A stretch of 54,410 nucleotides of DNA, from the IMG/VR virus record IMGVR_UViG_3300005602_000004, positions 1 through 54,410 of that record. The stretch is one strand, 5' to 3'. Positions 1 to 54,410 of this stretch are shown here, piece by piece. Below the pieces are notes generated by a model, which was not told where the DNA came from, ran no database searches, and was given only the letters and a program-made list of their open reading frames with translations. The translations under genes were made by a program, and so were the position numbers. This DNA is from a virus (lineage: Duplodnaviria; Caudoviricetes). Each line of letters begins with the position of its first letter. Position 1 is the first letter of the stretch.

Positions 1-90
1 CGAAATTCGAAGGTCGGAGGACCGTCTAATGGCACGAGGAAAACTGTTCGAGTACGCAGTTCTGTATCATCCAAAGCCGTCCAAGGATCA
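1..90. repeat. 90-bp terminal direct repeat, copy 1 (circular assembly overlap)
   Basis: 1-90 is identical to 54321-54410, and ORF 53858-54349 runs through the junction. Confidence 0.95.
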
Positions 91-250
91 GAATGATCGA
101 GGAGAGACGCCCAAGTCGGAACTCCTAATCGAGCCGAAGGTGGTGCTGGCTTCCAGTCCGGATCAGGTTGCGACTCTGGCATCGAGGGCGCTTCCTGAGA
201 CGCATCTGGATCGACTGGACGATATCGAGATTGTGGTGCGCCCTTTCTAG
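29..250 (+). CDS. hypothetical protein ending VRPF; probable -1 frameshift extension to 450
   Basis: SD GGAGG before the ATG; slippery C CCT TTC at 241-247 directly before TAG; -1 frame open to TAA at 448-450. Confidence 0.8.
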   Translation: MARGKLFEYAVLYHPKPSKDQNDRGETPKSELLIEPKVVLASSPDQVATLASRALPETHLDRLDDIEIVVRPF

Positions 251-458
251 CCCAGGCGCTTGGGCAAAAGAAGGACGAGCGCCCATCAAAAGAATTGCAG
301 CACATCAAGAGCATCATTCGAGGGGCGAATTTCGGCGATCAGATTTTAACGGGGAGTAGTGGTAGTTCGCTTGCCGGACTCAATTACACATCAACCGTTC
401 CCGATACGGTGAGCCAGAGTTATGTTACGGCGAGTGTCGCCCGAAGTTAAGGTGATCG

Positions 459-1262
459 ATGTCTGAGCGAATTTGCGTTTGCGGTCTCGGCAAGGTCGGC
501 CTCCCGATCCTGAACATGCTTCGGGAAAAGGGCTTCCGGGCCATCGGATACGACCGAGATTGGAAGAAGTCGGAGTCGAGTATCGGGGACGCGGTAAAGG
601 GTTCGGATGCCGCAATCTTCATTGTGCAAACGCCATCGAATGAGGATGGGTCCTTTTCGAACGATCACCTTGTCTCGGCACTCCACCGTTTCCACGACAT
701 AGCGCCAGCCGATTACCTGTACATCATTACCAGCACCACGACTCCCGGCAGTTGCGACAAGTTTCGGAAGATTGTTGGGGATAAAGTGGTCTACAAGCCG
801 GAATTCATTCGACTGGAGTACGTGGATGCGGACCTTCGAATGCCTGATTTCGTGTTGATCGGGGAGCACCGGAAAGAGGCGGGAGATCGGGCAGAAATAA
901 TCTACAGGGAGATTTCGCATTGTCCGGTCAAACGAATGTCGCTCATCGAAGCCGAACTTGCCAAGATCACGCTCAACTGCGCCCTGACCATGAAGATTTC
1001 GCTCGCCAATCAGTTACACCTCGTAGCGAGTAAACTCGGTGCCGATTCCGCAAAGATCATGGATGCTGTTGGAACCGATCCGAGAATCGGGAAGGCGTAC
1101 CTTACTCCCGGCTGGCCGTACTCCGGGCCGTGCTTGCCGAGAGATAATCGGATGTTCCAGTACGTTGCCGAACAGGTAGGAGTGAAAGCGGCGCTCTCGG
1201 AAGCCGCCGACGAAATCAATGGGATGATCTACGATGCCGACGCAACCGGCGCAAAAAGGTAG
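459..1262 (+). CDS. UDP-glucose/GDP-mannose dehydrogenase family protein lacking the C-terminal domain
   Basis: Rossmann GLGKVG, VQTP, ST..PG, PEF, AELAK and catalytic GPCLPRD motifs; only 267 aa. Confidence 0.85.
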   Translation: MSERICVCGLGKVGLPILNMLREKGFRAIGYDRDWKKSESSIGDAVKGSDAAIFIVQTPSNEDGSFSNDHLVSALHRFHDIAPADYLYIITSTTTPGSCDKFRKIVGDKVVYKPEFIRLEYVDADLRMPDFVLIGEHRKEAGDRAEIIYREISHCPVKRMSLIEAELAKITLNCALTMKISLANQLHLVASKLGADSAKIMDAVGTDPRIGKAYLTPGWPYSGPCLPRDNRMFQYVAEQVGVKAALSEAADEINGMIYDADATGAKR

Positions 1263-1273
1263 GTGATGCCACC

Positions 1274-1522
1274 ATGATAAAAAGAAACTCACTTGCGAGG
1301 AAGGCTATAAGCTGCAAGGCGAGTACTGTGTTATGCAGTTCACTACCCACGATGGTCCTACTGTTAATGGGAATGGTGAGATTCACTACCCCGACTCTTG
1401 CATGTCAACAGCAGTCGTCGGAGACAACACAGTCTCATGCAGCCACCCAGCCAAACCAGCAGGTGAATAGCGAGGCCGGGGATGGCGCTAAACCGGAGCC
1501 GCTAGAGAGCGCCATTTTATGA
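1274..1522 (+). CDS. hypothetical protein, possibly membrane-anchored or secreted
   Basis: SD AGGTGA; stop overlaps the next ATG (ATGA); central hydrophobic stretch. Confidence 0.45.
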   Translation: MIKRNSLARKAISCKASTVLCSSLPTMVLLLMGMVRFTTPTLACQQQSSETTQSHAATQPNQQVNSEAGDGAKPEPLESAIL

Positions 1523-2283
1523 ACAAGATTGAAGAGATCGAACGGTACTGGTCAGAATCTCCGTGTAACGTCCGGCACGGGACTGCCGAGGTCGGCTCGG
1601 CTCTGTGGTCCCATCAAGTAACCACTCGGAAGTACTGGGTCGAACAACACATCCCCGACTTTGCCGACTTCCCGCACTGGCAGGGGAAGCGAGTACTAGA
1701 ACTAGGATGCGGGATCGGCACCGACACAATCGAATTCGCCAAGTTCGCAGAGCACGTCGATGCGGTGGACATTTCGAAGGCGAGCCTAGACCTTGCCATG
1801 CAGCGGGCGGCAATCAATGGATGTAAGAATATCGGTTTCTATCAGGGGAACATCGAAGACCCGCTTCCCTTTACCGCGAACTGGTGGAACACCTACGATC
1901 TCGTGTACAGTTTCGGAGTCCTCCATCACACGCCGCGTCCCGAAATCGCGTTACAGAACGCCTACAAGTTCCTAAAGCCGTACGGCGAACTTCGGATCAT
2001 GCTCTATGCTCAATGGAGTTGGAAGCGGATCATGCATCATCAGCCGGAAGCGAAGTCGGGATGTCCATACGTCCGGTGGTATACGGCGAAAGCGGCCAAG
2101 CGGCTCGTTGAGACTTCGGGATTCAGGGTTATATCCATTCGAAAGACGCACATCTTTCCGTGGCGGATTTCGGAATACAAGAAGTATCGGTACGTGCGGG
2201 CATTCCCGTGGAACGTGGTTCCGGAACGCTGGCTCGAACCATACCTCGGCCATCAAATTTTGATTCGAGCGGTGCGGGTGTGA
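1519..2283 (+). CDS. class I SAM-dependent methyltransferase
   Basis: VLELGCGIG, VDIS, YDLVYSFGVLHH and LKPYG motifs. Confidence 0.9.
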   Translation: MNKIEEIERYWSESPCNVRHGTAEVGSALWSHQVTTRKYWVEQHIPDFADFPHWQGKRVLELGCGIGTDTIEFAKFAEHVDAVDISKASLDLAMQRAAINGCKNIGFYQGNIEDPLPFTANWWNTYDLVYSFGVLHHTPRPEIALQNAYKFLKPYGELRIMLYAQWSWKRIMHHQPEAKSGCPYVRWYTAKAAKRLVETSGFRVISIRKTHIFPWRISEYKKYRYVRAFPWNVVPERWLEPYLGHQILIRAVRV

Positions 2284-3332
2284 AGGCCGCAGTCGTTGTC
2301 ACCACGATCCACGATTGTACGGAACTCCTCGACGGATACCTAAAGAACTTCTCGAAGTATGGGCACGAGGTCAATTTTTATCTGATCCCGGATGTGAAGA
2401 CGCCTCGATTCGAAATTCCGACTGCTATAGGCGTTCCGAGTGACGGTCAACAAACGGCATTTCTCGAAAAGATTGGATTCCCTCCCGCCGACATTCCCTG
2501 GAACTCCGACAACCGGCGCAATGTCGGCTACCTCATGGCCCTTGCGGATGGAGCAGAGATGGTCGTCTCCATCGACGATGACAACTACTGCTCAGAGAAC
2601 GAGGATTACTTGCAAGCACATGAATACGGTTTTTCAAGGTCCGTGGGCTATGAAAACGAAGGACACTGGTATAACAATCTCGCTTTGCTGGATGCTCCTC
2701 CATACGAATATCCGAGAGGATTCCCTTTTTTTGCAAGGGGGACAGTAAAATCGAGAAAGCTACCGCTCACCGAATCTACCGTGAGAATCAACGCTGGGAT
2801 GTGGATTGGCGAACCCGATCTAGATGCGATGAGTTGGCTGCATCTTCCATTTCAGGCAATCCGATGCTCTAGCGAGTTAGTGCTTGGACCTGAAACTTGG
2901 TGCCCGATCAACTCTCAGAATACAGCGGTGCATCGAGATTTGATGGGCGCGTATTATTTCGTTCGTATGACCTCGCTGATGGATCGCTTCGGTGACATCT
3001 TCCAGGGATATTTCGCACTCAAAGTGGCAAAGCATATGGGTTGGACAGCCCGGTTCGGATCGCCTGTGGTCACGCATCGCCGGAACTCCCATGTGTACCT
3101 GAAGGATGTGCGGAAGGAAATCGAGCCAATTCTGCTCCTCGAAGAACTGCTCCCGAAACTGTTAGAGGTGAAACTAACCGGCACGACGGTCGAGGAAGCG
3201 TATTTGTCGCTTGCGGACTTTATCGAAAGCCAATCGTCGCCATTTTATTCCGAAACGGCTAGACTGATGCGCGTGTGGTCCGGCGCGATAGGGAGGATCA
3301 ATGGCAAAAGTCATTCTAGCCGGGGGGCCTAG
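2280..3332 (+). CDS. GT75-like protein (reversibly glycosylated polypeptide/STELLO-like)
   Basis: VVTTI, RRNVGYL, IDDDN, YPRGFPF, G.W.GEPDLDA, PINSQNT and RFGDI motifs; GTG start overlaps the upstream stop. Confidence 0.75.
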   Translation: MKAAVVVTTIHDCTELLDGYLKNFSKYGHEVNFYLIPDVKTPRFEIPTAIGVPSDGQQTAFLEKIGFPPADIPWNSDNRRNVGYLMALADGAEMVVSIDDDNYCSENEDYLQAHEYGFSRSVGYENEGHWYNNLALLDAPPYEYPRGFPFFARGTVKSRKLPLTESTVRINAGMWIGEPDLDAMSWLHLPFQAIRCSSELVLGPETWCPINSQNTAVHRDLMGAYYFVRMTSLMDRFGDIFQGYFALKVAKHMGWTARFGSPVVTHRRNSHVYLKDVRKEIEPILLLEELLPKLLEVKLTGTTVEEAYLSLADFIESQSSPFYSETARLMRVWSGAIGRINGKSHSSRGA

Positions 3333-4662
3333 TTTCGCCCTGTTCAATCCGTCTCTCCATGCGAGTCTTGGACTACTATATCTCGCGGCATGCCTTCGGG
3401 AAGCAGGTCACGAAGTCAAAATCATCGACTGCCATAAAATCAGCACCTTCGACGCCGAAGCGAATAAACTGCGAGTCGATCCCGACAAAATGGAACCCTG
3501 TGACATCCTCGGTGTGTCGATTGTTACGCCGAACGCCGAATTCGGAGGGCAACTAGCCGCTCTCTGGCCCGCCAAGGTGAAGGTAGCCGGTGGACCTCAT
3601 GTGACCTATATCATCGAAGGTCCGCACCAGCAGTTCAAGCAGAAGAAGTATTTCGAAGGGTTCGACTTCCTGATGACCGGCGAGTGCGAGGAATCGTTCG
3701 TCCAGTTCTGCAATCTTTGGCAATCGGGCGGCGATGTAACGAGGGTGCCGGGAGTGACGTGGTTCGACTCCTTCGGGGTTCATCAGCTTTACCCGTCGCC
3801 GCCACTACCGGACGTAACAAAAATGCCCTGTCCAGCTTATGACCTCTGGGGGAATTATTCGAAGGGAGGATTACAAGTTGCGTCGATCAAGGGGCACTCC
3901 GTGGATGTCGCTGAACGAACCATCGGATCGCTCTGGACGGCCAGAGGGTGTCCGTATGGTTGTTCGTTTTGTGCGGACGCGAGGACTAAACTCCGAGAAG
4001 AAACCTTCGACCAAATCGAAGCCGAAGTCAAAGCCCTCGCCGAAATCGGAGTGACCGCCCTCCGAGTTTGGGACGATGTGCTGACCATCAAGGCGAAGCG
4101 GTGCCGGGAACTGGCTGCCCTTTTCCACGACTACGGGATGCTCTGGCGGGGATGGAGCCGGGTGAATCTGTTCGACCCGGAACTGTTCAAGGACCTTGCT
4201 CGCCTCGGCTGCACGGAACTCGGATTTGGCGTTGAGCACGGATCGTCCCGAATGCTAAAGGCAATGAACAAGGGCACGACGCCAGAAGCGAACACCCGAG
4301 GAATTCGCCTATGCCAAGATGCCGGAATCTCGGCACGGGCGTATCTTCTGATCGGGTTTCCGGGTGAAACTTGGGAGTCGATCCAGGAAATGCAGGATTG
4401 GCTCGATGACTGCCGACCGGATGCAGCCAGCCTGCACCAATTTCAACCATATCCAGGGTGTGAAGTTTGGAATCATCCCGACCGTTTTGGAGTCACAATA
4501 ACTGCCGATTCATGGTCTAAGCTCTGGGAATTGAACGACGAGGACCCCAGTACGATTGTGCTCGAACTTCCTACGATGAATAAGGCGGAGTTGTTCGCTG
4601 CTAGAAAGCAGTTGCACGATTGGGTGACTGAAAATATCTCCCTTCGACTTGCGAACCGATGA
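3301..4662 (+). CDS. cobalamin-binding radical SAM enzyme (class B-like)
   Basis: N-terminal B12-binding motifs (LGLLYLAA, GGPH, GECE); RGCPYGCSFC; GVEHGS; GFPGET. Confidence 0.9.
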   Translation: MAKVILAGGPSFALFNPSLHASLGLLYLAACLREAGHEVKIIDCHKISTFDAEANKLRVDPDKMEPCDILGVSIVTPNAEFGGQLAALWPAKVKVAGGPHVTYIIEGPHQQFKQKKYFEGFDFLMTGECEESFVQFCNLWQSGGDVTRVPGVTWFDSFGVHQLYPSPPLPDVTKMPCPAYDLWGNYSKGGLQVASIKGHSVDVAERTIGSLWTARGCPYGCSFCADARTKLREETFDQIEAEVKALAEIGVTALRVWDDVLTIKAKRCRELAALFHDYGMLWRGWSRVNLFDPELFKDLARLGCTELGFGVEHGSSRMLKAMNKGTTPEANTRGIRLCQDAGISARAYLLIGFPGETWESIQEMQDWLDDCRPDAASLHQFQPYPGCEVWNHPDRFGVTITADSWSKLWELNDEDPSTIVLELPTMNKAELFAARKQLHDWVTENISLRLANR

Positions 4663-5369
4663 CACTGAGCATTGTCACTTCGGGCCGGAATGATCTGCAC
4701 GCCGGAGACTTCATTGACCGGATGAATCGTTCGTTCGAAACTCTTCCTTCCGATGCCGAAATCATTATGGTCGAATGGAATCCTCCCGAGGATCGGCCCG
4801 CGCTCGCATCGATGATTCGGCGAAATGGCGTTCGGGTCATTACCGTTTCACGGGAATTGCACAATCAGATGCACGGGCATGACTTGCTTCCGTTTTTCGA
4901 ATATCGGGCGAAGAATGTCGGCATTCGCAGGGCGCACGGGAACTGGATTTTATCGATGAATCCCGACATCATATTAGGCCAGGAAATGCTCGAACGTCTA
5001 GGGTACGACTTCGATCATCACTGCTGCTACGTGGCTCCGAGACATGATATTGAAGGCGGGAAACTCGTTCGGATTACGAGCGGGCCAGGAGACTTCGTTC
5101 TGATGCATCGGGATAAGTGGTCCGATCTTCGAGGGTATCTCGATATTGTTAGTTATTCGCATATCGATTCGCTACTACTATGGAATGCGGAGTCTATTGG
5201 CATTCCGATGGTCGAACTTCCCTGTCCGATCTTCCATCAAGAGCACGACCGTTCGGTGCATAAAGGGCGCATGTCGATCCATTCTTCCGACCTGCATTGG
5301 TTCGTTGGGCAGAAGAATGACCTAGATTGGGGATTTGCCAAACTCGACCTAGCGGAGACGCTGACTTGA
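4659..5369 (+). CDS. GT-A fold glycosyltransferase (GT2-like)
   Basis: LSIV..GRND, AKNVGIRRA.G.WIL..NPD and GDF motifs. Confidence 0.8.
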   Translation: MTLSIVTSGRNDLHAGDFIDRMNRSFETLPSDAEIIMVEWNPPEDRPALASMIRRNGVRVITVSRELHNQMHGHDLLPFFEYRAKNVGIRRAHGNWILSMNPDIILGQEMLERLGYDFDHHCCYVAPRHDIEGGKLVRITSGPGDFVLMHRDKWSDLRGYLDIVSYSHIDSLLLWNAESIGIPMVELPCPIFHQEHDRSVHKGRMSIHSSDLHWFVGQKNDLDWGFAKLDLAETLT

Positions 5370-6343
5370 AAGTCGCATTACTCTACCCGACTGTAGCCGC
5401 TCTCGTGGAGAAGATGGGCGTACTTTTCCCCGGTCTGAACGTTATAGGCCCTCCATGCGATGCGCTGTACAGTTGGGACAAACGAATCCTCAATCTGGCA
5501 AAGGCGAAGGATCGTGGCAAGGAGTGGCAGGAAGTGGGTCTCGACATCCACTTTGAGGAAAAGCCGTACTCTGAATGCGACTTCTCGAAATTCGACCTGT
5601 TGATCGAATCGGTCGAAACATTCGACTATGCCGCCGACTGGAAGAACCATTGTCACCGTCTCGAATGCCCAACAATGGTCTTTGTGTGCTGGTATGACAA
5701 TCCGACCTATCTCCCATCGAACTATCAACAGAAGATCAAAAACTTGCCAATTAAGGTTGGGATGCCGTCGCTTGTTCCGGCATGGAAGTCTGTCTATCCC
5801 CAAGCCGAATTTGCTCCGGTTCCGGTGGGTGACTGGTGGTTCGAGCGGGAATGGAACGGGATTCGAGAAGAGGCGCTATTTGTTCTCGCCGGGAAGGATT
5901 TGTGGCGACCGGCAGACAAGTCAGTTTGCGGGGTTGATCTATTCGAAAAACTCTCGGAATCCTTTCCGGGAAAGATGCACCACCATGACGGGGCGATGGA
6001 GTTTAAGACCTCGAAGCAGATGGCCGAAATGTTCAGCGAGTACCGGGTATTCCTGAATCTCGATAATGCAGCGGGGAGACCGCTATCGACTTCCTTCACG
6101 GAGGCTCTGGCAGCCGGGATGCCGGTTGTGGCTCGGGACCTATCGGGACTCTCCTACTTTGACTACATCGAAGGGAATGGAATCGCAGCCTATAATTTAA
6201 GCGAGATTGCCGAATTCATCGCTCTCTGTTTCTCGGACATAGCATTCGCTCGAAGGTGTAGCGCCCGTTCTAGGCAGATTGCGAAGGCGGCGTTCTCGAC
6301 CGAAGCGGTTCGGCCATTCTACGAAATCGGAAGGTCGGCATGA
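5366..6343 (+). CDS. GT-B fold glycosyltransferase (GT4-like)
   Basis: C-terminal STSFTEALAAGMPVVA motif; TTG start overlaps the upstream stop. Confidence 0.8.
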   Translation: MKVALLYPTVAALVEKMGVLFPGLNVIGPPCDALYSWDKRILNLAKAKDRGKEWQEVGLDIHFEEKPYSECDFSKFDLLIESVETFDYAADWKNHCHRLECPTMVFVCWYDNPTYLPSNYQQKIKNLPIKVGMPSLVPAWKSVYPQAEFAPVPVGDWWFEREWNGIREEALFVLAGKDLWRPADKSVCGVDLFEKLSESFPGKMHHHDGAMEFKTSKQMAEMFSEYRVFLNLDNAAGRPLSTSFTEALAAGMPVVARDLSGLSYFDYIEGNGIAAYNLSEIAEFIALCFSDIAFARRCSARSRQIAKAAFSTEAVRPFYEIGRSA

Positions 6344-6918
6344 CGATTTCAAAGAACCGAGAGGACGATCTAAGGAAACTGCAAGAGCATGCCATCGAGG
6401 AATATGAATCTGGCAAAAATCTCCAAGAGATCGGTGAACAATATGGATTTTCGGGCAGCACTGTCCTGCATATTCTTCAATATTTAGGTGTATCCAGAAG
6501 ATCAGGAACACCAATCCGTCACGGCCACAACCAAGTTGGGCATCGGACTGGAACTTATAATTCTTGGGACACGATGATTCAACGCTGCACCAATCCAAGA
6601 AACGATAACTATAGAAATTATGGTGCGCGTGGTATTACGGTATGTGAACGCTGGCTGATATTCGCTAATTTCCTCGCCGACATGGGAGAGCGCCCGGAAG
6701 GTCTAACGCTTGATCGGCTCGATAATTCTAAGGGATACGCTCCTGAGAATTGTAAATGGATAACAAGGAAAGAGCAGTTGAATAATAAGCGAACGAATGT
6801 AGTAATCGAATACATGGGCAAGAGTCAGACATTGGCTCAATGGGCCGTAGAACTTGGCGTGGACTATATGGCTCTCTGGCACAAATATCGGAGAAAGGGA
6901 ACATGGCCCCCGAAATAA
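6340..6918 (+). CDS. free-standing HNH homing endonuclease with N-terminal HTH
   Basis: W..M.QRC.NP...Y..YG.RGI.VCERW..F..F..DMG and LDRLDN.KGY.PENC.W motifs. Confidence 0.9.
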   Translation: MTISKNREDDLRKLQEHAIEEYESGKNLQEIGEQYGFSGSTVLHILQYLGVSRRSGTPIRHGHNQVGHRTGTYNSWDTMIQRCTNPRNDNYRNYGARGITVCERWLIFANFLADMGERPEGLTLDRLDNSKGYAPENCKWITRKEQLNNKRTNVVIEYMGKSQTLAQWAVELGVDYMALWHKYRRKGTWPPK

Positions 6919-7739
6919 TTTCACTTCTCCTGCCTTCCCGGAAGCGCCCGACCATTCTTCGCCGGATGGTTAAGTCTGTCCGAGATACGGCGACTAACCC
7001 TGACCGCATCGAAATTGTAGTCCGATTTGATGATGATGATGAGGCTAGTGCGGAAGAGGCCCGCATGGATGGACTAGTAGTATTGGTCGGTCCACGCATT
7101 CGAAAGATGACTCAGTACTGGAATCTGTGTTTCGACGAGTGCTCTGGCTCTATATGTCAACAAGCCAATGATGATTATATAATAACTAGTAATGGATGGG
7201 ACGTTGCTCTCGAACAAGCGTTCGCAGAAGTGCCTGATAAGATTATGTGCGCGCATTTTTCAGACGTATATGGTCATGGATCGAATTTTGGCCCCCATGC
7301 ATTTACCAGCCGACGCTGGATAGAAACATTAGGTTACTTTATAGCACCGTACTTCAGTAGTGACTTTGGTGACGCTTGGCTTTTAGAAATAGCGAACATC
7401 CTCGGACGCCGAAGATTCCTACCCTTCAACATAGAGCACTGGCATTTTTCTCAAGGTCTCGCCGAGATCGACGAAAACACCGCCGAACGGTTGCAACGCC
7501 ATCGGGAGGACGATCCCGAAACTCTGTACTACAGTCCGGCAATGCAGGCCGAACGCCAGCATGACGCGCAAAAACTGGCGAAGTTAATGGACAAAACAAT
7601 CAGCACGAAGGGTTGGTGCCCGCCGCACAACAATATCCGAAGCGCCGGGATGTGTCCGAAGTGCGACAGTTTATCGACTGTGGCGGTCGGAGTAGGGCAG
7701 TTCCATTGCAATTGTTGCTCGCACATTTTTACGAGATAG
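6903..7739 (+). CDS. GT2-like glycosyltransferase with C-terminal Zn ribbon
   Basis: ISLLLPSR.R, EIVVRFDDDD, NDD; ends in CPKC...CNCC. Confidence 0.8.
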   Translation: MAPEIISLLLPSRKRPTILRRMVKSVRDTATNPDRIEIVVRFDDDDEASAEEARMDGLVVLVGPRIRKMTQYWNLCFDECSGSICQQANDDYIITSNGWDVALEQAFAEVPDKIMCAHFSDVYGHGSNFGPHAFTSRRWIETLGYFIAPYFSSDFGDAWLLEIANILGRRRFLPFNIEHWHFSQGLAEIDENTAERLQRHREDDPETLYYSPAMQAERQHDAQKLAKLMDKTISTKGWCPPHNNIRSAGMCPKCDSLSTVAVGVGQFHCNCCSHIFTR

Positions 7740-7747
7740 CGTAGGAT

Positions 7748-7803
7748 GGGGACACCGTGATTGGTCACGGCATCCCCGCAGGCTCAGTCAGTTAGGACTG
7801 AAC
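7748..7803 (+). promoter_or_regulatory. two hairpins upstream of the HNH gene; the second covers the RBS
   Basis: GGGGA-ca-CCGTGA/TCACGG-ca-TCCCC, then TCAGTC/GACTGA overlapping AGGA before ATG 7804. Confidence 0.55.
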
Positions 7804-8244
7804 ATGCAAAATAGAACTTTATCACACAACTCAAATTATCGGCACGGCCATGCTCTCGCAGGCAAAGAGACCGCTACGTACATCTGTTGGAGAAACATGA
7901 TCTCTCGTTGCGAGAATAAAAATCAGAAAGATTACAAATACTACGGTGGTCGTGGGATTCAAGTTTGCGAAAGATGGAGAACTGATTTTACTTCATTCCT
8001 TAGAGATATGGGTGAAAAACCCAAAGGAATGTCCATAGATAGGATCGACAATAATGGTGATTATGAACCCTCTAATTGTCGGTGGGAAACACACACTAAT
8101 CAAATGAATAATAAGAGGAATAGCGTTCTAATTACGAGAGAAGGATTGACATTGAACGCTTCCGAGTGGGCTAGGAGAATAGGTGTGGACCATCACACTA
8201 TCGCAAGATGGCATCGGAAAGGTACGTGGCCGCAGGGAAAATGA
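7804..8244 (+). CDS. free-standing HNH homing endonuclease
   Basis: YGGRGIQVCERW and SIDRIDNNGDYEPSNCRW; paralog of 6340-6918 (both end in RKGTWP). Confidence 0.9.
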   Translation: MQNRTLSHNSNYRHGHALAGKETATYICWRNMISRCENKNQKDYKYYGGRGIQVCERWRTDFTSFLRDMGEKPKGMSIDRIDNNGDYEPSNCRWETHTNQMNNKRNSVLITREGLTLNASEWARRIGVDHHTIARWHRKGTWPQGK

Positions 8245-8921
8245 AAACAAAGTGGGAATTATTGATTCTTACAATGCCAACTCGCGTCGAGTTTCTTCGG
8301 CGTTTATTGATTTCATTGGAGCCGCAATGTGCAAGTAATCCAGAAGTTTCGATTCGTATTCGAACTTGTGATCCACGATATACATTAGGAGAGAATCGTG
8401 AAATGTTGCGCCGCTCGTCGGAGGCTTCGTATCTTAGCTTCGTAGACGATGACGATGGCGTTGATCCAGAATTTGTTTCTACTATTCTTCCATTATTGGA
8501 TGGTATCGATTATGTGGGATTTGATGTTCAAGCATACATTGACGGAAAACCGTTGGTAAAAATCACTCATCATTCACTCCGATATGATGGCTGGTATGAA
8601 ACGGATGAATTTTACGCCCGAGACATCTCACATATAAACCCAATGCGTAGAGATTTAGTACTTCTGGAAGCCTTCGAAGGCGGTCACGGAGAGGACGTTC
8701 GATGGGCCGACCGGATGCGGGCGAGAGGTGTTCTGAAAACAGAACGCTACATAGATCGGGTTCTATACCACTACTATTTCCGGACCCGAAAGAACATCGG
8801 CAAGCCGTGCCCGAAGTGTGGGAGTACGTCCACAGTGCTCGTCGGCGAAGGAACGGTATGCAATGCCTGCTCGCTATCCTTTGACCGGCATCCGGAGCAA
8901 AAATCTTGTCTTTGGACTTGA
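8241..8921 (+). CDS. GT2-like glycosyltransferase with C-terminal Zn ribbon
   Basis: LLILT..R, YLSFVDDDD, GED..W; ends in CPKC...CNAC. Confidence 0.8.
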   Translation: MKTKWELLILTMPTRVEFLRRLLISLEPQCASNPEVSIRIRTCDPRYTLGENREMLRRSSEASYLSFVDDDDGVDPEFVSTILPLLDGIDYVGFDVQAYIDGKPLVKITHHSLRYDGWYETDEFYARDISHINPMRRDLVLLEAFEGGHGEDVRWADRMRARGVLKTERYIDRVLYHYYFRTRKNIGKPCPKCGSTSTVLVGEGTVCNACSLSFDRHPEQKSCLWT

Positions 8922-10734: not shown

Positions 10735-11261
10735 TGACCGCCGAGGCCCGAGCCTTGCAATCCGCGAAGATGAAGGAAGCATGGATTAAGCGCAAGGCTC
10801 TAAAGCAGGAAGTTCCCGCCGATCCGGGGATTCGGGAGGCGATGGCAAAGGTTCCGATGAATGCGGTAACACCAGCGGCATTGCCGACACCTACTCCACC
10901 TCCCCCGGAATCCGACACGCTCGATCAGAGCCACATCATCATCGAAGTCGATTGGGACCATCTCCCGATGTCCGAAGCGCAGCAGTTTTACGCTCACCTG
11001 AAAGAGAACTTCGAGCGGGCCGGTAAAATCCTGAATGCCCGGTCGATGGAACGAACTTCCGGATATACCTGCTTCATGTGTCACAAACACTTCCAAGGGA
11101 ATCCCGGTTTCACCGACCACAGCTACATCGATCCCGCAACTGGCCTATCCCCCCGAGTGGATTGCTGTGGCGAACTCTGTGTGATCAACTATAATTCCTT
11201 CCGAATCAACGAACGGCACCAACGGCAACTCGCCCAAGCTGCCGCCCAACGAAATGGCTAA
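10731..11261 (+). CDS. hypothetical protein upstream of TerL (positional TerS candidate)
   Basis: overlaps both neighbours; CxxC...CC..LC; no TerS motif recognised. Confidence 0.6.
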   Translation: MMTAEARALQSAKMKEAWIKRKALKQEVPADPGIREAMAKVPMNAVTPAALPTPTPPPPESDTLDQSHIIIEVDWDHLPMSEAQQFYAHLKENFERAGKILNARSMERTSGYTCFMCHKHFQGNPGFTDHSYIDPATGLSPRVDCCGELCVINYNSFRINERHQRQLAQAAAQRNG

Positions 11262-13044
11262 ACATAACGATCCGGTCTGGATGGATCGCTCCCGCCAGTT
11301 ACTCGCTCGCCTGCCGATTAAATCAAGGGAACATAATCAGATGACGCCTTTCAGCTTCTTTCCGAGTCAGGAAAGAAGATTCCAAAGGATGCGGGAGCAA
11401 TGGCGTCGAGAAGGGCACATTCGGATCATTGATCTGAAGAGTCGGCGTGTGGGATTTTCGAGTCAGACCGAAGGAATTTTTTGGTGCAGGGGACTGGGAT
11501 TCTCCAATATGAACATGAAGATCGTCGCCCATCTTACGACGAGCGCCGAGGAACTGTTTCGTGTTCCAGGCGATCTATCCAGAGGATTCCCAAACTTCCC
11601 GCTCGAAGACATCCAGCAAAAGAAAATCTATTTCCGGCATCCGAGTGGAGATAGCCATTTGACGGTTGCGACCGCTGGCACTCCATCGGCGGGGCGCGGG
11701 GGAACGCTCTCCGCGCTTCATCTTTCTGAAGCAGCTTCCTATCCGGATGACGAAATTTTCACGGCCATGATTTCGTCCGTGTCGAAGGGTCCAGGAAGCA
11801 TGATTATCATTGAATCGACGGCCAATGGCCGGGAAGGTCCGGGGGCGGCGTTTGCCGAATACTGGGATGAAGCGGTAGCGGGTCGAAATGGGTACATCCC
11901 CAACTTCGCATCGTGGCTCGAAGACCCGGCCTTCATTCGTCCGGAAGAAGAGGCGGAAGACGCTCCTCGGGACGACCTCGAAAAAGAGTTGATGAAGGCT
12001 CCATTCAATGCGACTCGGGAGCAAATCGCATGGATGCGTCGAACGAAAGCCGATGACTGCCGGAACATCGAGTCAAAATTCCTGCAAGACTTTCCGCACA
12101 CGCCCTCGGTAGCCTTTCAAGTATCGGGATACCCGGCTTTCCCGAGGGAGGAGCTTGCGTATGCGGAAAGCACGGTCAAACCACCGATCTGTCGAGGGTC
12201 TTTTCAGCGTATGGCTGGGAGTTCGGCTTTTAAGTTCATCGAGGACGATAACGGTCCTGTCCATATGTGGAAGAAGCCCGTCAACGAAAAAAATCGTCCA
12301 GATGGATTGCATTACTACATCGGAGCGGATGCTGCGCTTGGAACTGAAGAGGGTGATTTCTGCGCTTACGCGTGTATTTGTGGAGAGACCGGCGAACTCG
12401 CTTGCCGTTTTGCTGAACGAATTGCCCCCGAAGTCCTGGCGAATCAACTCGATATGTGCGGACAGTACTACAATCGAGCAATGGTAAATCCGGAATTGAC
12501 AGGGAATCTCGGGAGGTGGGCGCTTGTCAAGCTACGCGACGTATACCGATACCCGAACATCTACACTTGGAAAGGGCGAGACGACCGGAAAAAGGGTAAG
12601 AGCCGTAGTATTGCCCTTGGCTTCGAAATGACGCAGGCGACACGCCGATTAATCGTGGATGCGGCTCGAAGCGGCATTCGCATGGGGCTAAAGGCTGAAC
12701 CCGGAGCACTCGTCATCAATGATCGAGCGTTGATGGACCAACTCGGGATGATGACGGTGAAGGAATGGCGGTGGGACATTCTTCGGGGGCACGACGATAT
12801 TGCCGTAGCCTGGATGATTGCGGCTTTAACCCGTGAGCAGTATCCTCCCCCTCGAATGAAGTACGCACCAAAAAACTTAATGGACCCACAGAATCCAAAG
12901 GAAATATTGGCTGGATTGCCGCTCAAGGAAGAGATTGGACCGATGATCCAGCGAGAAATGAGACAATTTATGAATCAAGCCAAAACGCCTGCTCCGGGTA
13001 GTCGCGTACGGTGGAGCACAAGGGCACGACTGGCGGGAATATGA
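11254..13044 (+). CDS. terL: terminase large subunit
   Basis: Walker A LKSRRVGFS, Walker B LHLSEAA, coupling motif IESTANG, nuclease motifs YIGAD and HDD. Confidence 0.95.
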   Translation: MAKHNDPVWMDRSRQLLARLPIKSREHNQMTPFSFFPSQERRFQRMREQWRREGHIRIIDLKSRRVGFSSQTEGIFWCRGLGFSNMNMKIVAHLTTSAEELFRVPGDLSRGFPNFPLEDIQQKKIYFRHPSGDSHLTVATAGTPSAGRGGTLSALHLSEAASYPDDEIFTAMISSVSKGPGSMIIIESTANGREGPGAAFAEYWDEAVAGRNGYIPNFASWLEDPAFIRPEEEAEDAPRDDLEKELMKAPFNATREQIAWMRRTKADDCRNIESKFLQDFPHTPSVAFQVSGYPAFPREELAYAESTVKPPICRGSFQRMAGSSAFKFIEDDNGPVHMWKKPVNEKNRPDGLHYYIGADAALGTEEGDFCAYACICGETGELACRFAERIAPEVLANQLDMCGQYYNRAMVNPELTGNLGRWALVKLRDVYRYPNIYTWKGRDDRKKGKSRSIALGFEMTQATRRLIVDAARSGIRMGLKAEPGALVINDRALMDQLGMMTVKEWRWDILRGHDDIAVAWMIAALTREQYPPPRMKYAPKNLMDPQNPKEILAGLPLKEEIGPMIQREMRQFMNQAKTPAPGSRVRWSTRARLAGI

Positions 13045-14155: not shown

Positions 14156-14426
14156 AAAGCTACTCCAAGCACTGACCGCGCTACCGGCGATGGTGATAGC
14201 AGGTAAAGATGGCAACCCGGTCGGAGTGAAGTATGAGACCACACCGGATAAGCGATACGTCGTATTCCTGAATGCACGAATGGTAGATGTAACGGATTTT
14301 TGCGCTCCACCTTCTGAATCATGCCCTGCCGCACATACACTTCCTCCGGGAACTGTTGTCCATTGTGTCTATGTGAGTAAAGATGAATCAATGGACGAAA
14401 TCATCCGTATCTACGAGGTCGGATAG
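14145..14426 (+). CDS. hypothetical protein with twin-arginine-like N-terminus
   Basis: MERRKLLQALTALPAMVIAG. Confidence 0.6.
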   Translation: MERRKLLQALTALPAMVIAGKDGNPVGVKYETTPDKRYVVFLNARMVDVTDFCAPPSESCPAAHTLPPGTVVHCVYVSKDESMDEIIRIYEVG

Positions 14427-16162
14427 TGTCCGTCACCTACGTCCAAGCGCCATTCATCGTCACCGAGGAGAAGAAAACTGTCGCTTTTACCGGAGATAAG
14501 AAAATATCGAAGCAACTCGATGAATTGCAGCGCATGTCGAAAAACGAACGGGAAAATAAGCAGGGAAGCAACCACTCCGATGAAATGCGGCAGTACTACA
14601 ACCTGAATTACTATCCATCGGTATCGACTCCCGCTTTCCGTCCCCGTGTCATTCTTCCCGAAGCGCAATTCCTGATGTGCTGTGAAGCGACCGAGCTAAC
14701 GAACGATACGCCCAAAGTTTACATCAGCGTGAATGGGAAGGCCGACGAGCAACGGGAGAAGGCATTCAACGCAGCATGGCGTCTCGGGATGTTCAATAAC
14801 CGGCTCTTTGACGGTGTTTTCTGGTCGCAATTCGTCAATCCATCCTTCATGCAGGTTGGCTGGAATCCCGACGCTCGAAACGGGAAGGGAATGGTTTGGA
14901 TCGCTGCCGACGATCCCGACACTATTTTCCCCGATCCGCACGCCAAGGATGACAAAACTTGGTCTTATGTCGTGAAGGAAAAGTACCTGTATGTCGATGA
15001 AATTAGGCGTATTTTCCCGGAAAAGGGGAAGTACGTCAAGATCGGCGGAGGGTACGACGATTACGAAGAGAATGAGATGGAAGGCTCCCATTTCGATCTT
15101 GGAATGGAACTTCCTCCTGGACCGCTTCGGATCGATGCCCCTCAAGGTTTCGAACATCAAAGGAACGGCCCTCGGGTACGCATCCGGTACGTATGGGTCA
15201 AGGATTATGCTCGGGATCGGGTGAAAGAGATCGCGGGACGAGAGGCCGGAGAAGGTTTCGAACTAGTAGTCCAGCCACGATTTAAGTGGAGGTATCCGAA
15301 CGGTCGATTCATCGTCGAGTGCAATGGGATTATTCTGGCTGATGGACCGAATTTCATGCCCCGATTGCCGGAGGATGATTTCGGTACTTTCCCGTTTATC
15401 GGCTTGTGGTCCATGCCGCACCTCGATTCGATGTACGGACCTCCCCCGATTCGGTACGTGAAGTCTCCACAGGACATTGCCGAGCGAATGTATACCCAGC
15501 TTATCGAGAACATGATCCGAACGAACAATGTGCAGTGCTGGATTCCTCGGGATGCGAATATCGACATCGATGCTTACGGCGGGTTGCCAGGAGAAGTGCA
15601 GGTTTACGACGGCGACAAGCCTCCGACCATGAGTTCGCCGCCACAGATTCCGCAGCATATGACACAGATACCGGAACTATTGCTGCAAAAAGTGGCGCGG
15701 TATTCGGGGACAACCCCTGAACGGCAGGGGCAGGCGGGTGGGGGAAACATTTCACCGGAACTGTTTGACGCTGCTGTATTTCAGGGTCAGACATTCGTTC
15801 GGATGAAAGCCCGCCTTCTTGCCGAATCGTATCAGCGGTTAGCACGACTCGTTTTTTACACAATGGCCCGGTTCAAGCGGAACGAAGATATGCTGATGCC
15901 CGAGCGCCGGAAGCAGAAATCATGTTCATGGTTGCCACTTCCCGATGGGGCGGAATGCGATCTCGAACTCGATTCAGTTTCATTACAGGCAGTTTCAAGC
16001 TCGATGATGAAGAATCTCGTTCTTTCGCTCTCGAAGACGGGCGCGTTGCCGCCGAAGTTTATCTTCGAGACGATGGGTTTCCCGCAAGCCGACCAATTGG
16101 CAGAAGATGCGCAAAATGCACAAGCATTAGCCGCGATTTCGAAATTGCGCCGTCCCCGGTAG
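14426..16162 (+). CDS. portal protein
   Basis: 578 aa, located between terL and the scaffold/capsid genes; DP..FPDP.A and FPF...W....S.YG motifs typical of podoviral portals. Confidence 0.85.
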   Translation: MSVTYVQAPFIVTEEKKTVAFTGDKKISKQLDELQRMSKNERENKQGSNHSDEMRQYYNLNYYPSVSTPAFRPRVILPEAQFLMCCEATELTNDTPKVYISVNGKADEQREKAFNAAWRLGMFNNRLFDGVFWSQFVNPSFMQVGWNPDARNGKGMVWIAADDPDTIFPDPHAKDDKTWSYVVKEKYLYVDEIRRIFPEKGKYVKIGGGYDDYEENEMEGSHFDLGMELPPGPLRIDAPQGFEHQRNGPRVRIRYVWVKDYARDRVKEIAGREAGEGFELVVQPRFKWRYPNGRFIVECNGIILADGPNFMPRLPEDDFGTFPFIGLWSMPHLDSMYGPPPIRYVKSPQDIAERMYTQLIENMIRTNNVQCWIPRDANIDIDAYGGLPGEVQVYDGDKPPTMSSPPQIPQHMTQIPELLLQKVARYSGTTPERQGQAGGGNISPELFDAAVFQGQTFVRMKARLLAESYQRLARLVFYTMARFKRNEDMLMPERRKQKSCSWLPLPDGAECDLELDSVSLQAVSSSMMKNLVLSLSKTGALPPKFIFETMGFPQADQLAEDAQNAQALAAISKLRRPR

Positions 16163-19650: not shown

Positions 19651-20655
19651 ATGGCGTTTACAGTCGGAACTGGCGTTAATCAACCCAGCGCGTTGCTGGT
19701 CAACACGCTTCAGTCGATCTCGCAGAAGATGATTTATCCGAAGGTTGCGGACCTCGTGTTCCAACCATCGCCGACATTCTCTTTCTTGAACCAGTATGCC
19801 AAGAAATACAATGCCGGAGCCGAAATCGTCTATCCCCTCCTCACGACCAAGATTACGACTCGCGGCTCCTACTGGGGCGACCAGCTTTTGCCGACCTCGG
19901 CAATAGACGCGATTCAACCGGCTGACCAAGTGTGGCGTGGCTATTTCCAAGCAACCACACTGCCGGTCATGGACATCGTGATCGGGCGCGGCGGGCCGGT
20001 AGGTCTCGATCTCGTGAAGACCTATGTACAGGCTGCCGCTGGTTCGATGCTCGACATGCTAGCCGAAGCGGTAGCCGGTAACGCGCCATTTAACTCAGCG
20101 ACCGACCTCGATTCGATCAATGCCTGGGTGCTACAAACCACGAATACGATTGCCGGGATCAACCGCACGACGAGCACGTTCTGGCAGCCACAGCCGAATC
20201 AGCCCATCTCCGGCCACTTGACCCCGATCAAGTTGCTTCCGGCCTACTTCCTGACGACCTATGGTTACGACGAGCCGAACCTGCTCATCCTGAACAACAC
20301 GGATTTTGCGAACTTCGAAGGGCAATTCACGCAAAACTCGAACGCAGCGGCTTCGACAACCATCATCCGCGCTACCGACAACTATGCGGATACGGCCCCA
20401 ATCCAGACTTCGTTCCGGTATCACATGCGGTTCAAGAATGCCGTTGTGCTTGCGGATCAGCACTTCCCGGCAGGGACGGGATACCTGTTGAACACTAAGT
20501 ACATATGGATGGTGTATAACATGGGTTCATATTTCAGAATGACCCCTTGGATAATGCCGTCCAATCAGGATGTTATCACATCGCGCATTCATCTGATTTG
20601 CCAACTCGGATGTAATAGGCCGATTGGTCAAGTGGCGTTGACGTTACTATCGTAA
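19651..20655 (+). CDS. major capsid protein
   Basis: 334 aa; position after the scaffold; DLVF..SP.F, G..I.YP, IAGINRTT.TFW and YLLNTKY motifs. Confidence 0.85.
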   Translation: MAFTVGTGVNQPSALLVNTLQSISQKMIYPKVADLVFQPSPTFSFLNQYAKKYNAGAEIVYPLLTTKITTRGSYWGDQLLPTSAIDAIQPADQVWRGYFQATTLPVMDIVIGRGGPVGLDLVKTYVQAAAGSMLDMLAEAVAGNAPFNSATDLDSINAWVLQTTNTIAGINRTTSTFWQPQPNQPISGHLTPIKLLPAYFLTTYGYDEPNLLILNNTDFANFEGQFTQNSNAAASTTIIRATDNYADTAPIQTSFRYHMRFKNAVVLADQHFPAGTGYLLNTKYIWMVYNMGSYFRMTPWIMPSNQDVITSRIHLICQLGCNRPIGQVALTLLS

Positions 20656-53732: not shown

Positions 53733-53857
53733 ATGAAGGTTGGGCAAAGGCTGGTGAGCCGGGAACCGAGGGTAAGTGTACCGTGTTTAACCGGGCAGCA
53801 CGGGCATTGTTTTAAGCTGAATTGCTCGTGTACACGCCACGGAAAGAGGAGGCAGTG

Positions 53858-54349
53858 ATGTGGTTCAAGCCGAAGTTGACTAGGGAACCAGTGGTGATCG
53901 ATCAGCCGGACGAATCGAGGAAGGCGCTCGCGGTCAAGGCCAGGGTGGTGTTGGGATACCTGGTGCTCGAACGAGAGATTCCAGGATCGAACGCGAAGAC
54001 TGAGGTCGAGACGGTTTTCAAGAAGTTAGGCATAGAGCCGCTTAATTTCGAGCGAGTCCAGAAGTATCAGAAGTGGTTTGCCAAAAAACATTCAGGAAGT
54101 TTCAGTTGGGAAAGAACAGTTTGGCATGAAACGCCGATTAGACAGTACGAGCATTTTATCCCCGAGTTTGCCCTATCGAGGGCAGTGGAGGTCAAGGAGC
54201 ATCTTCCGGCAGCCGAATTTACAATCGAGTTTCCGGTACGGGAGCAAATCGTTCGGCCCGATCCATTTATGGTGATACATTATAAAGGGACTAAGTATTA
54301 TCTCGATGTGTGGGATGAACCGAAATTCGAAGGTCGGAGGACCGTCTAA
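53858..54349 (+). CDS. conserved phage hypothetical protein
   Basis: SD GAGGAGG; W..T....Y...IPEFAL, DPFMV and VWDEP.F motifs; TAATG coupling to gene 1. Confidence 0.8.
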   Translation: MWFKPKLTREPVVIDQPDESRKALAVKARVVLGYLVLEREIPGSNAKTEVETVFKKLGIEPLNFERVQKYQKWFAKKHSGSFSWERTVWHETPIRQYEHFIPEFALSRAVEVKEHLPAAEFTIEFPVREQIVRPDPFMVIHYKGTKYYLDVWDEPKFEGRRTV

Positions 54350-54410
54350 TGGCACGAGGAAAACTGTTCGAGTACGCAGTTCTGTATCATCCAAAGCCGT
54401 CCAAGGATCA
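54321..54410. repeat. 90-bp terminal direct repeat, copy 2
   Basis: identical to 1-90. Confidence 0.95.

Follow-up and report, generated by a model that had tools for sequence, protein, structure and literature searches.

Relatives of a small phage gene point to a probable programmed -1 ribosomal frameshift just ahead of its stop codon

The DNA analyzed here (the window) spans an entire IMG/VR virus record, 54,410 bp long. Its ends form a direct terminal repeat of 90 bp, positions 1-90 being identical to 54321-54410. Gene 1 encodes a 73-residue protein, and its ATG overlaps the TAA of the upstream ORF in the sequence TAATG at 27-31 (Table 1). A series of small plus-strand ORFs without family matches precedes the gene, a sugar-metabolism island lies downstream, and the terminase gene is found 11 kb further along, with the portal and major head protein genes beyond it. 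We compared the gene 1 region with relatives' contigs from four soil DNA runs of other soil samples. Likeness to the window begins exactly at 27-29, and at this edge the contigs carry GGAG-type ribosome-binding sites; these two observations therefore confirm the start of gene 1. A search of sequencing runs for the window sequence listed no RNA run.

Table 1. Positions of gene 1, its recoding features and landmark genes in the window
Feature	Position	Strand	Details
Upstream ORF	53822..54349	+	175 aa, without family match; stop overlaps the gene 1 start across the terminal repeat
Gene 1, zero-frame ORF	29..250	+	73-aa core ending R-P-F; stop TAG 248-250
Slippery heptamer C CCT TTC	241..247	+	After a -1 slip: CCC TTT, then CTA GCC
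Zero-frame stop TAG	248..250	+	Abuts the heptamer; C follows
-1 frame extension	241..450	+	69 codons (P, F and 67 new residues), TAA 448-450; predicted trans-frame product 140 aa
Small alternative stem	250-254/261-265	+	5 pairs; overlaps the 5' arm of the main hairpin
Downstream hairpin	255..283	+	Arms 255-262/276-283, 8 pairs, 13-nt loop, 7 nt past the heptamer
Conserved C-terminal motif S-Y-V-T-A-S	418..435	+	-1 frame
Next gene, UDP-glucose/GDP-mannose dehydrogenase family	459..1262	+	Starts 8 nt past the extension stop
Large terminase	11254-13044	+	
Portal	14426-16162	+	
Major head protein candidate	19651-20655	+	PHROG match at 19651-20652

The original prediction for this locus proposed that ribosomes shift into the -1 frame at the end of gene 1. 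As it described, the gene ends CGC (239-241) CCT (242-244) TTC (245-247) TAG (248-250), and these codons contain a heptamer of the X XXY YYZ form in the frame of the ORF. The 8-bp stem it placed after a 7-nt spacer is also there, with one G.U pair. The -1 frame is closed by a TGA at 196-198 and then stays open from 199 to the TAA at 448-450, without an ATG, and counting from 241 yields the Pro and Phe codons plus 67 more. Because the next gene begins 8 nt after this TAA, the extension fills the whole intergenic gap, and the SD-like sequence AAGGTGA lies ahead of the ATG at 459, again as predicted. The expected product sizes of 73 and 140 residues were likewise correct.

Considered in the window alone, these features are within chance. 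A run of at least 69 open codons follows 32% of arbitrary plus-strand start points in this DNA, real genes included. Counted from the heptamer, a 60-nt segment has a folding energy of -15.3 kcal/mol, which corresponds to a z-score of -0.45 against 200 dinucleotide shuffles, 62 of which fold as well, and the 45 nt past the heptamer fall at the 4.9th percentile of 389 segments from the first 6 kb. The sequence signal rises far beyond chance only across relatives.

We collected relatives by searches with the 73-residue protein and with an alignment built on it. IMG/VR viral contigs provided 33 loci (33-77% identity) and metagenome contigs 12 (51-100% identity). In the cultured-phage collection, the protein search found only two versions of one uncultured 735-kb phage record, and the DNA search gave no match. 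Duplicates (L006, L031, L032, L039, L043 and L044) were dropped, as were the fragment L047, the fused form L033 and the uninformative L034, a locus of high G+C in which both alternative frames are open. Frames, heptamers and motifs were then counted over 38 loci with core identities of 33-99%, hairpins over 37 loci (L035 left out), and codons and start codons over 36 loci (L035 and the partial L048 left out); because the loci are related, all of these counts overstate independence. In L037, L038 and L048 the core is near-identical to that of the window.

The family extends well beyond these loci. A profile search with the core against 1.84 billion cluster representatives returned 896 at E <= 0.001 and 362 at E <= 1e-10, and the features recognized by a language-model atlas place the core family almost wholly in viruses. 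All 66 near-length protein matches are 66-77 residues long. Among the best 150 representatives from the core profile, 111 end exactly in R-P-F and only 2 have an in-frame tail, and a search for longer versions of the 73-residue protein produced a single match, in which the addition is N-terminal rather than C-terminal.

The heptamer is retained across the family. C CCT TTN occurs in 32 of the 38 loci, as CCCTTTC (20), CCCTTTT (10), CCCTTTA (1) or CCCTTTG (1). The other six loci have GCCTTTT (3), ACCTTTT (1), GTCTTTT (1) or GTCTTTC (1) and keep T TTY, which is present in 36/38 loci overall. In the window and the 33 viral loci, NCC TTT N or GTC TTT T followed by a stop terminates 30 of the 34 sequences. 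The codons that make up the heptamer are constrained too. The terminal Pro is CCT in 35/35 genes, compared to 21/145 Pro codons elsewhere in the same genes and to 3/34 and 8/32 in a further two columns where Pro is conserved; in a single gene the terminal Pro is replaced by Ser (TCT). The preceding Arg is CGC in 31/35 genes versus 34/101 elsewhere. For the terminal Phe, 19 genes use TTC and 15 use TTT, and either codon fits the frameshift model. Between the window and the L037/L038 core, the proteins are 99% identical and the DNA differs at 27 nucleotides, 24 of them at codon position 3, with none of the 27 differences falling within 233-253. As judged by sequence comparison, the gene 1 core is under strong purifying selection.

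The zero-frame stop directly follows the heptamer in 37 of 38 loci and comes one codon later in L035. TAG is used at 28/37 of these sites, with TGA at 5 and TAA at 4, compared to TAG at 50/220 other long ORF ends of these loci. The tetranucleotide TAG-C is found at 21/37 sites versus 12/220 other long ORF ends.

We then compared the three frames past the heptamer. All 38 loci have a -1 frame without a stop for 50 codons or longer (median 73.5), as against 4/38 for the +1 frame (median 20) and 2/38 for zero-frame read-through (median 16.5). In eight loci a -1 stop lies only 4 codons ahead of the heptamer. Varied R-P-F codons and early -1 stops in homologues had been named beforehand as findings that would speak against a frameshift, and the homologues show the opposite on both counts. 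This comparison of sequences strongly supports the frameshift interpretation, and it shows that selection acts on both the signal and the -1 reading frame.

The extensions range from 50 to 190 codons, and their sequences are very diverse across loci. Among relatives with near-identical cores, the first ~15 and the last ~25 extension residues are kept, while the middle consists of unrelated sequence of different length between close relatives, the frame being preserved despite the indels. The pattern [S/T/A/V/Q]-Y-x(1-2)-[A/S/T]-[A/S/G/Q/N] is found within the last 25 extension residues in 32/38 loci, whereas over 1000 shuffles of the extensions it turned up in 7 loci at most and in 2.2 on average; the pattern was chosen after the data were seen, and six of the 38 extensions lack it so defined. 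The longest extension, that of the 735-kb phage with 190 codons, contains ~23 collagen-like G-X-Y triplets, and the fused form L033 contains ~6. The tail is Ser/Thr-rich. In general it is conserved at its start and at its S-Y-T tip, and the part between them is exchanged among phages that are otherwise near-identical. The extension had no family match in Pfam or PHROGs and no usable match in the protein atlas. In a model of the fused form built from only 3 sequences, pLDDT is ~80 for the core and below 50 for the tail. The tail is probably disordered, which this model indicates only weakly because the value below 50 comes from 3 sequences.

RNA structure past the heptamer is common in the family but not uniform. 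The 45 nt past the heptamer rank in the top 10% of stability for their own locus in 26/37 loci and in the top 5% in 23/37, and 11/37 loci are without unusual stability there (for example L009, L018, L029, L030 and L036). Against mononucleotide shuffles of 28 loci the mean z-score was -1.88, with 15/28 below -1.5. Uninterrupted stems of 7-13 bp start 2-10 nt past the heptamer in 24/37 loci, and the stem sequences vary among loci at the same position; no simple stem past the heptamer was found in L009 or L030. In L037/L038, the T261C change converts the G.U pair of the window hairpin into G-C. The hairpin at 255-283 is a probable stimulator of the slip.

The original prediction also offered a 5-bp stem as an alternative pseudoknot fold. 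The stem itself is present and partly kept. RNAalifold, run on an ungapped alignment of 8 sequences, recovered only this small stem, with 4 pairs of which 2 have compensated changes, and missed the main hairpin because the loop lengths differ. The pseudoknot, by contrast, was not established and is rather doubtful, since no residue connects the two stems and A254C together with T261C breaks the closing pair of the small stem in L037/L038.

In a few cases the core and tail are joined without any shift of frame. The core of L032/L033, of L051 and of two database proteins, P0111 and P0123, runs in frame past R-P-F into a tail of ~55-65 residues carrying an S-S-S-[S/T]-Y-T motif. These in-frame fusions bear the same motif as the extensions, and therefore the tail belongs to the core protein. 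L033 and L051 are ~57% identical to each other and both keep CGC CCT TTT, followed by GAC or GAA, so that their -1 frame reads TGA at once. A slip in these two lineages would yield exactly the short R-P-F form, a suggestive parallel at the sequence level to the layout of dnaX. The two layouts mirror each other: slipping would add the tail in most members and remove it in the fused members.

On these grounds, ribosomes reading gene 1 very probably undergo a programmed -1 frameshift on the final two sense codons. Most ribosomes would read CCT TTC, meet the TAG and release the 73-residue protein. A fraction would slip back one base on C CCU UUC, aided by the adjoining stop and by the hairpin 7 nt downstream, and would continue through CCC UUU CUA GCC and on for 67 more codons in all to produce a 140-residue isoform made of core and tail. 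One message could thereby supply tail-less and tailed copies of a single domain in a ratio set by the RNA. The simplest route would be a hairpin-stimulated tandem -1 slip of tRNA-Pro and tRNA-Phe from CCU UUC to CCC UUU. At the six of 38 heptamers that lack the first X, however, a strictly tandem slip would leave a mispaired codon in the P site. Alternatively, tRNA-Phe in the P site could slip on U UUY while a poorly recognized stop waits in the A site; this route would give the same product and would explain those six heptamers. The position of the stop directly against the heptamer in 37/38 loci, together with the enrichment of TAG and TAG-C, suggests that the stop takes part in the slip. 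On the P-site route TAG-C would act as a weak terminator. The TAG-C preference may instead come from the Leu-Ala that the -1 frame encodes there, or from the foot of the hairpin.

Several other explanations for the downstream ORF were considered. It could be a separate small gene on which ribosomes either initiate independently or reinitiate once they have terminated at the TAG; there is a TTG at 295 (codon 18 of the -1 frame) in the window, and some relatives, such as L011, L042 and L046, have an SD-preceded start inside the ORF. These start positions are not conserved, however. The whole -1 ORF is without any ATG in 6/36 loci, no SD-preceded start lies in its first half in 24/36, and the frame is open straight from the heptamer in all 38 loci. 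Such a gene would also leave the frozen CCT TTY codons and the in-frame fusions unexplained, and we regard it as very unlikely. Still less likely is that 251-458 is a non-coding spacer, with the open -1 frame and hairpin arising by chance or the hairpin acting as a terminator or other regulatory structure. The features of the window are indeed within chance by themselves (z-score of -0.45 and an open-frame background of 0.32), and an Rfam search of 1-700 matched no family. A spacer does not account for a -1 frame that is open in 38/38 loci while the +1 frame is open in 4/38, for a peptide motif at its end, for a frame that survives indels, or for homologous sequence in frame with the core in the fused forms.

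The two frames could also be joined at the level of nucleic acid, through transcriptional slippage on the T run, through an assembly indel or because the locus is a pseudogene of a fused gene. Fused forms do exist and there is a T run at the site, but the run has only 3-5 bases. Known transcriptional slippage runs are longer. Moreover, the same frame break recurs in 37 independent contigs from different samples as well as in the source-sample contig, relatives' contigs covering 241-260 are without indel, and the upstream core is under strong purifying selection; joining of this kind is as improbable as the spacer. Finally, the tail could be added by read-through of the TAG, through suppression or stop reassignment, a possibility that the preference for TAG at the site (28/37 versus 50/220 other long ORFs) would favor. 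The zero frame past the stop closes early, with a median of 16.5 codons and at least 50 in only 2/38 loci, the conserved motif is in the -1 frame, and TGA (5) and TAA (4) are also used at the site. Because TAG is the ordinary stop of 15/59 window ORFs of at least 150 residues, and because a tRNA gene search of the window found none, TAG is not reassigned. Read-through is almost certainly not the source of the tail.

The genes around gene 1 differ from locus to locus. BLASTP between loci revealed no conserved neighbor gene. We scanned 83 upstream and 76 downstream neighboring ORFs across loci against PHROGs, which matched 78 and 60 families, respectively; annotation is absent for most of these ORFs, and each of the 25 most frequent of the 78 and of the 60 families matched only 1-2 members. 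The named families among those listed are mainly helicases, primases, RecE/RecT, a clamp loader, DNA methyltransferases, ParB, and HNH and other nucleases, together with terminases and endolysins, two families of each. Capsid and tail families were absent from the 25 most frequent per side. Gene 1 therefore probably lies outside the tail module, among early or DNA-metabolism genes. The original view that the gene looks like neither a tail nor a capsid gene fits both its position 11 kb upstream of the terminase and the missing PHROG and Pfam matches, which fall short of proof. We also weighed whether gene 1 might encode a RiPP precursor, given that radical SAM, methyltransferase and glycosyltransferase genes lie downstream; this candidate was dropped because that gene island is not beside gene 1 in other loci.

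We modeled the core with AF2 from 51 sequences. The model has a mean pLDDT of 90.5 and the order strand-helix-strand-helix-helix-strand, and it predicts a compact alpha/beta protein of 73 residues. Sequence searches with the core found no match in Pfam or PHROGs and none in NCBIfam, where only far sub-threshold SrpA rows appeared for two fused homologues; the best hit in a PDB sequence profile search had E 0.42. The structural searches with the core model were similar. Foldseek gave no clear match in the PDB (best E 0.088, PurS), and the best BFVD hits, at E 0.02, were uncharacterized proteins. In the VIA wide search the best hit was PurS (2zw2_B, Z 6.1, rmsd 3.5 over 66 residues), which is below the tool's meaningful level, followed by ribosomal eL20-type chains at Z 5.3-6.0. 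The nearest protein atlas clusters of the core are all viral and labeled "hypothetical protein."

What the two forms do can be proposed only tentatively. By analogy to dnaX tau/gamma and to SSB tails, the tail might serve as a flexible tether, with a binding tip through which a partner is reached by the core or by oligomers of it, with the frameshift setting the share of tailed molecules. A broader proposal, which we hold with no greater confidence, is that phages of this family require one 70-residue domain in two versions, with and without the tail, and obtain them through two mirror-image uses of one heptamer. The tail would then be a tether or fibre of modular build that evolves fast, recoding would control its dosage, and the whole could represent an undescribed protein class.

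Conserved programmed frameshifts of phages are well documented mainly for tail chaperones and for a few capsid and tail genes. The signal described here is textbook -1 frameshifting, with an in-frame heptamer, a downstream stem in most loci, and an open, startless and conserved -1 ORF, and the gene family is outside the known cases. Full-text literature searches found no description of the gene 1 family or of its heptamer in phages, and supplements may list predicted cases. The family would add a large group of frameshift genes outside the chaperones, given the 896 representatives that the core profile matched at E <= 0.001. Database entries are nearly all of the short form, and the long isoform is missing from them. 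Dozens of different hairpins behind one heptamer and stop offer a natural set for bacterial -1 efficiency, and the family could serve to train frameshift predictors on non-chaperone cases. The two mirror-image layouts are possibly a new twist.

The closest phage counterpart is the lambda-type -1 frameshift of the tail assembly chaperones G and GT (Xu et al. 2004, described in PMC10885494), which gives a short and an extended product in fixed ratio. As in G/GT, the gene 1 heptamer is located close to where a small ORF ends, the -1 ORF lacks a separate start, and a short and a C-terminally extended product are predicted and conserved across very divergent phages. Unlike G/GT, gene 1 is not between the tail tube and tape measure genes, and its short extension is probably disordered, not a folded domain added to the first. 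Gene 1 also has no PHROG, Pfam or NCBIfam match to chaperones and no clear fold match, although the chaperone families are very divergent and a missing match thus does not exclude membership.

Frameshifting also occurs in capsid genes, namely gene 10A/10B of T7 and the major head protein gene of Lactobacillus phage A2. These resemble the predicted case of gene 1 in that a -1 slip at the end of the ORF, near the stop, places a C-terminal extension on a fraction of the product. They differ from it in that gene 1 is not the major capsid gene and its fold matches nothing capsid-like. Slips of +1 at CCC followed by a stop occur in structural genes of Listeria phage PSA and Bacillus phage SPP1. The recoding site of gene 1 likewise abuts the zero-frame stop, and slow termination with an empty A site may therefore drive the slip. 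In contrast to PSA and SPP1, the direction is -1, a tandem-slip heptamer is present in 32/38 loci, and a hairpin lies downstream.

The tau and gamma products of E. coli dnaX arise from a -1 frameshift on A AAA AAG with a hairpin. In bioRxiv 10.1101/2025.10.02.679949, dnaX is named as a -1 control. Like tau and gamma, the predicted isoforms of gene 1 share their N-terminal part and differ in their C-terminal part, which in dnaX binds a partner, and we propose that their ratio is likewise set by heptamer and hairpin. The gene 1 core, at 73 residues, has no sequence or fold relation to the AAA+ clamp loader. The fused forms L033 and L051 have the dnaX layout, in which the long form is encoded by the zero frame and ribosomes slipping by -1 on C CCT TTT would meet TGA at once, whereas in most members of the family, including the window, the layout is reversed and the slip would add the tail.

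We examined the stop codon context that follows the heptamer proposed for -1 frameshifting at the end of gene 1. A TAG codon followed by C occurs directly after the heptamer in 21 of 37 loci (window positions 248-251 and 36 other loci with homologues of the gene 1 core), compared with 12 of the 220 other long ORF ends within the same loci. This preference for TAG-C could stem from a weak terminator, from the Leu-Ala that it encodes in the -1 frame, or from the foot of the downstream hairpin.

Some homologues of gene 1 are fused in frame to further coding sequence. The fused genes (L033, which is the same gene as L049, and L051) retain CGC CCT TTT, followed by GAC or GAA, and the -1 frame therefore meets TGA immediately. 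Because of this TGA, a slip would yield a short form ending in R-P-F. Judged from these sequences, the fused homologues would thus represent the reverse of the window's layout, were slippage to occur at all. A gene 1 homologue was also found in a 735-kb uncultured phage genome (L036, LR756501.1). Its 3' end reads CGC CCT TTT TAA, and the -1 frame runs for 190 codons without a stop, encoding about 23 collagen-like G-X-Y triplets and then a Ser/Thr-rich part. A further, high-G+C homologue (L034) carries CGG CCC TTT TGT with the stop five codons further on. The two alternative frames each run on for over 140 codons, and this homologue could either shift differently, by +1 on TTT T, or contain an indel.

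Features of the window and of loci with gene 1 homologues
Feature	Locus	Position
Direct terminal repeat, 90 bp	window	1-90 and 54321-54410
Sugar-modification gene run	window	459-8921
UDP-glucose/GDP-mannose dehydrogenase family	window	459-1262
SAM methyltransferase	window	1519-2283
RGP-like glycosyltransferase	window	2160-3332
B12-binding radical SAM enzyme	window	3301-4662
GT1-like, weak match	window	5327-6343
GT2-like, weak match	window	6840-7739
GT2-like, weak match	window	8208-8921
825-aa ORF	window	31634-34111
Fused homologue	L033 (= L049)	3001-3399
Fused homologue	L051	1501-1900
Homologue in 735-kb genome	L036	1501-2280
High-G+C homologue	L034	3150-3630

The terminal repeat covers the end of the upstream 175-aa ORF and extends 62 nt into gene 1, whose start therefore lies inside the repeat. 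Directly downstream, gene 1 is adjoined by the run of sugar-modification genes; this island does not adjoin the gene 1 homologue in the other loci. Its products may modify DNA, the phage particle, the surface of the host or the Ser/Thr-rich tail predicted for gene 1 itself. Elsewhere in the window, the C-terminus of the 825-aa ORF has a weak match, at E 3e-4 short of the Pfam cut-off, to the K1 capsule lyase C-terminal domain, and this protein may be a tailspike with a depolymerase.

Finally, we compared window positions 283-385, the middle of the extension, with the closest relatives of the core (L037, L038 and L048) and with related contigs from sequencing runs X3 and X4. Between phages whose core proteins are 99% identical, this middle consists of unrelated sequence of different length, while the first ~15 and last ~25 residues of the extension are kept. 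The middle of the extension thereby resembles a swappable cassette.
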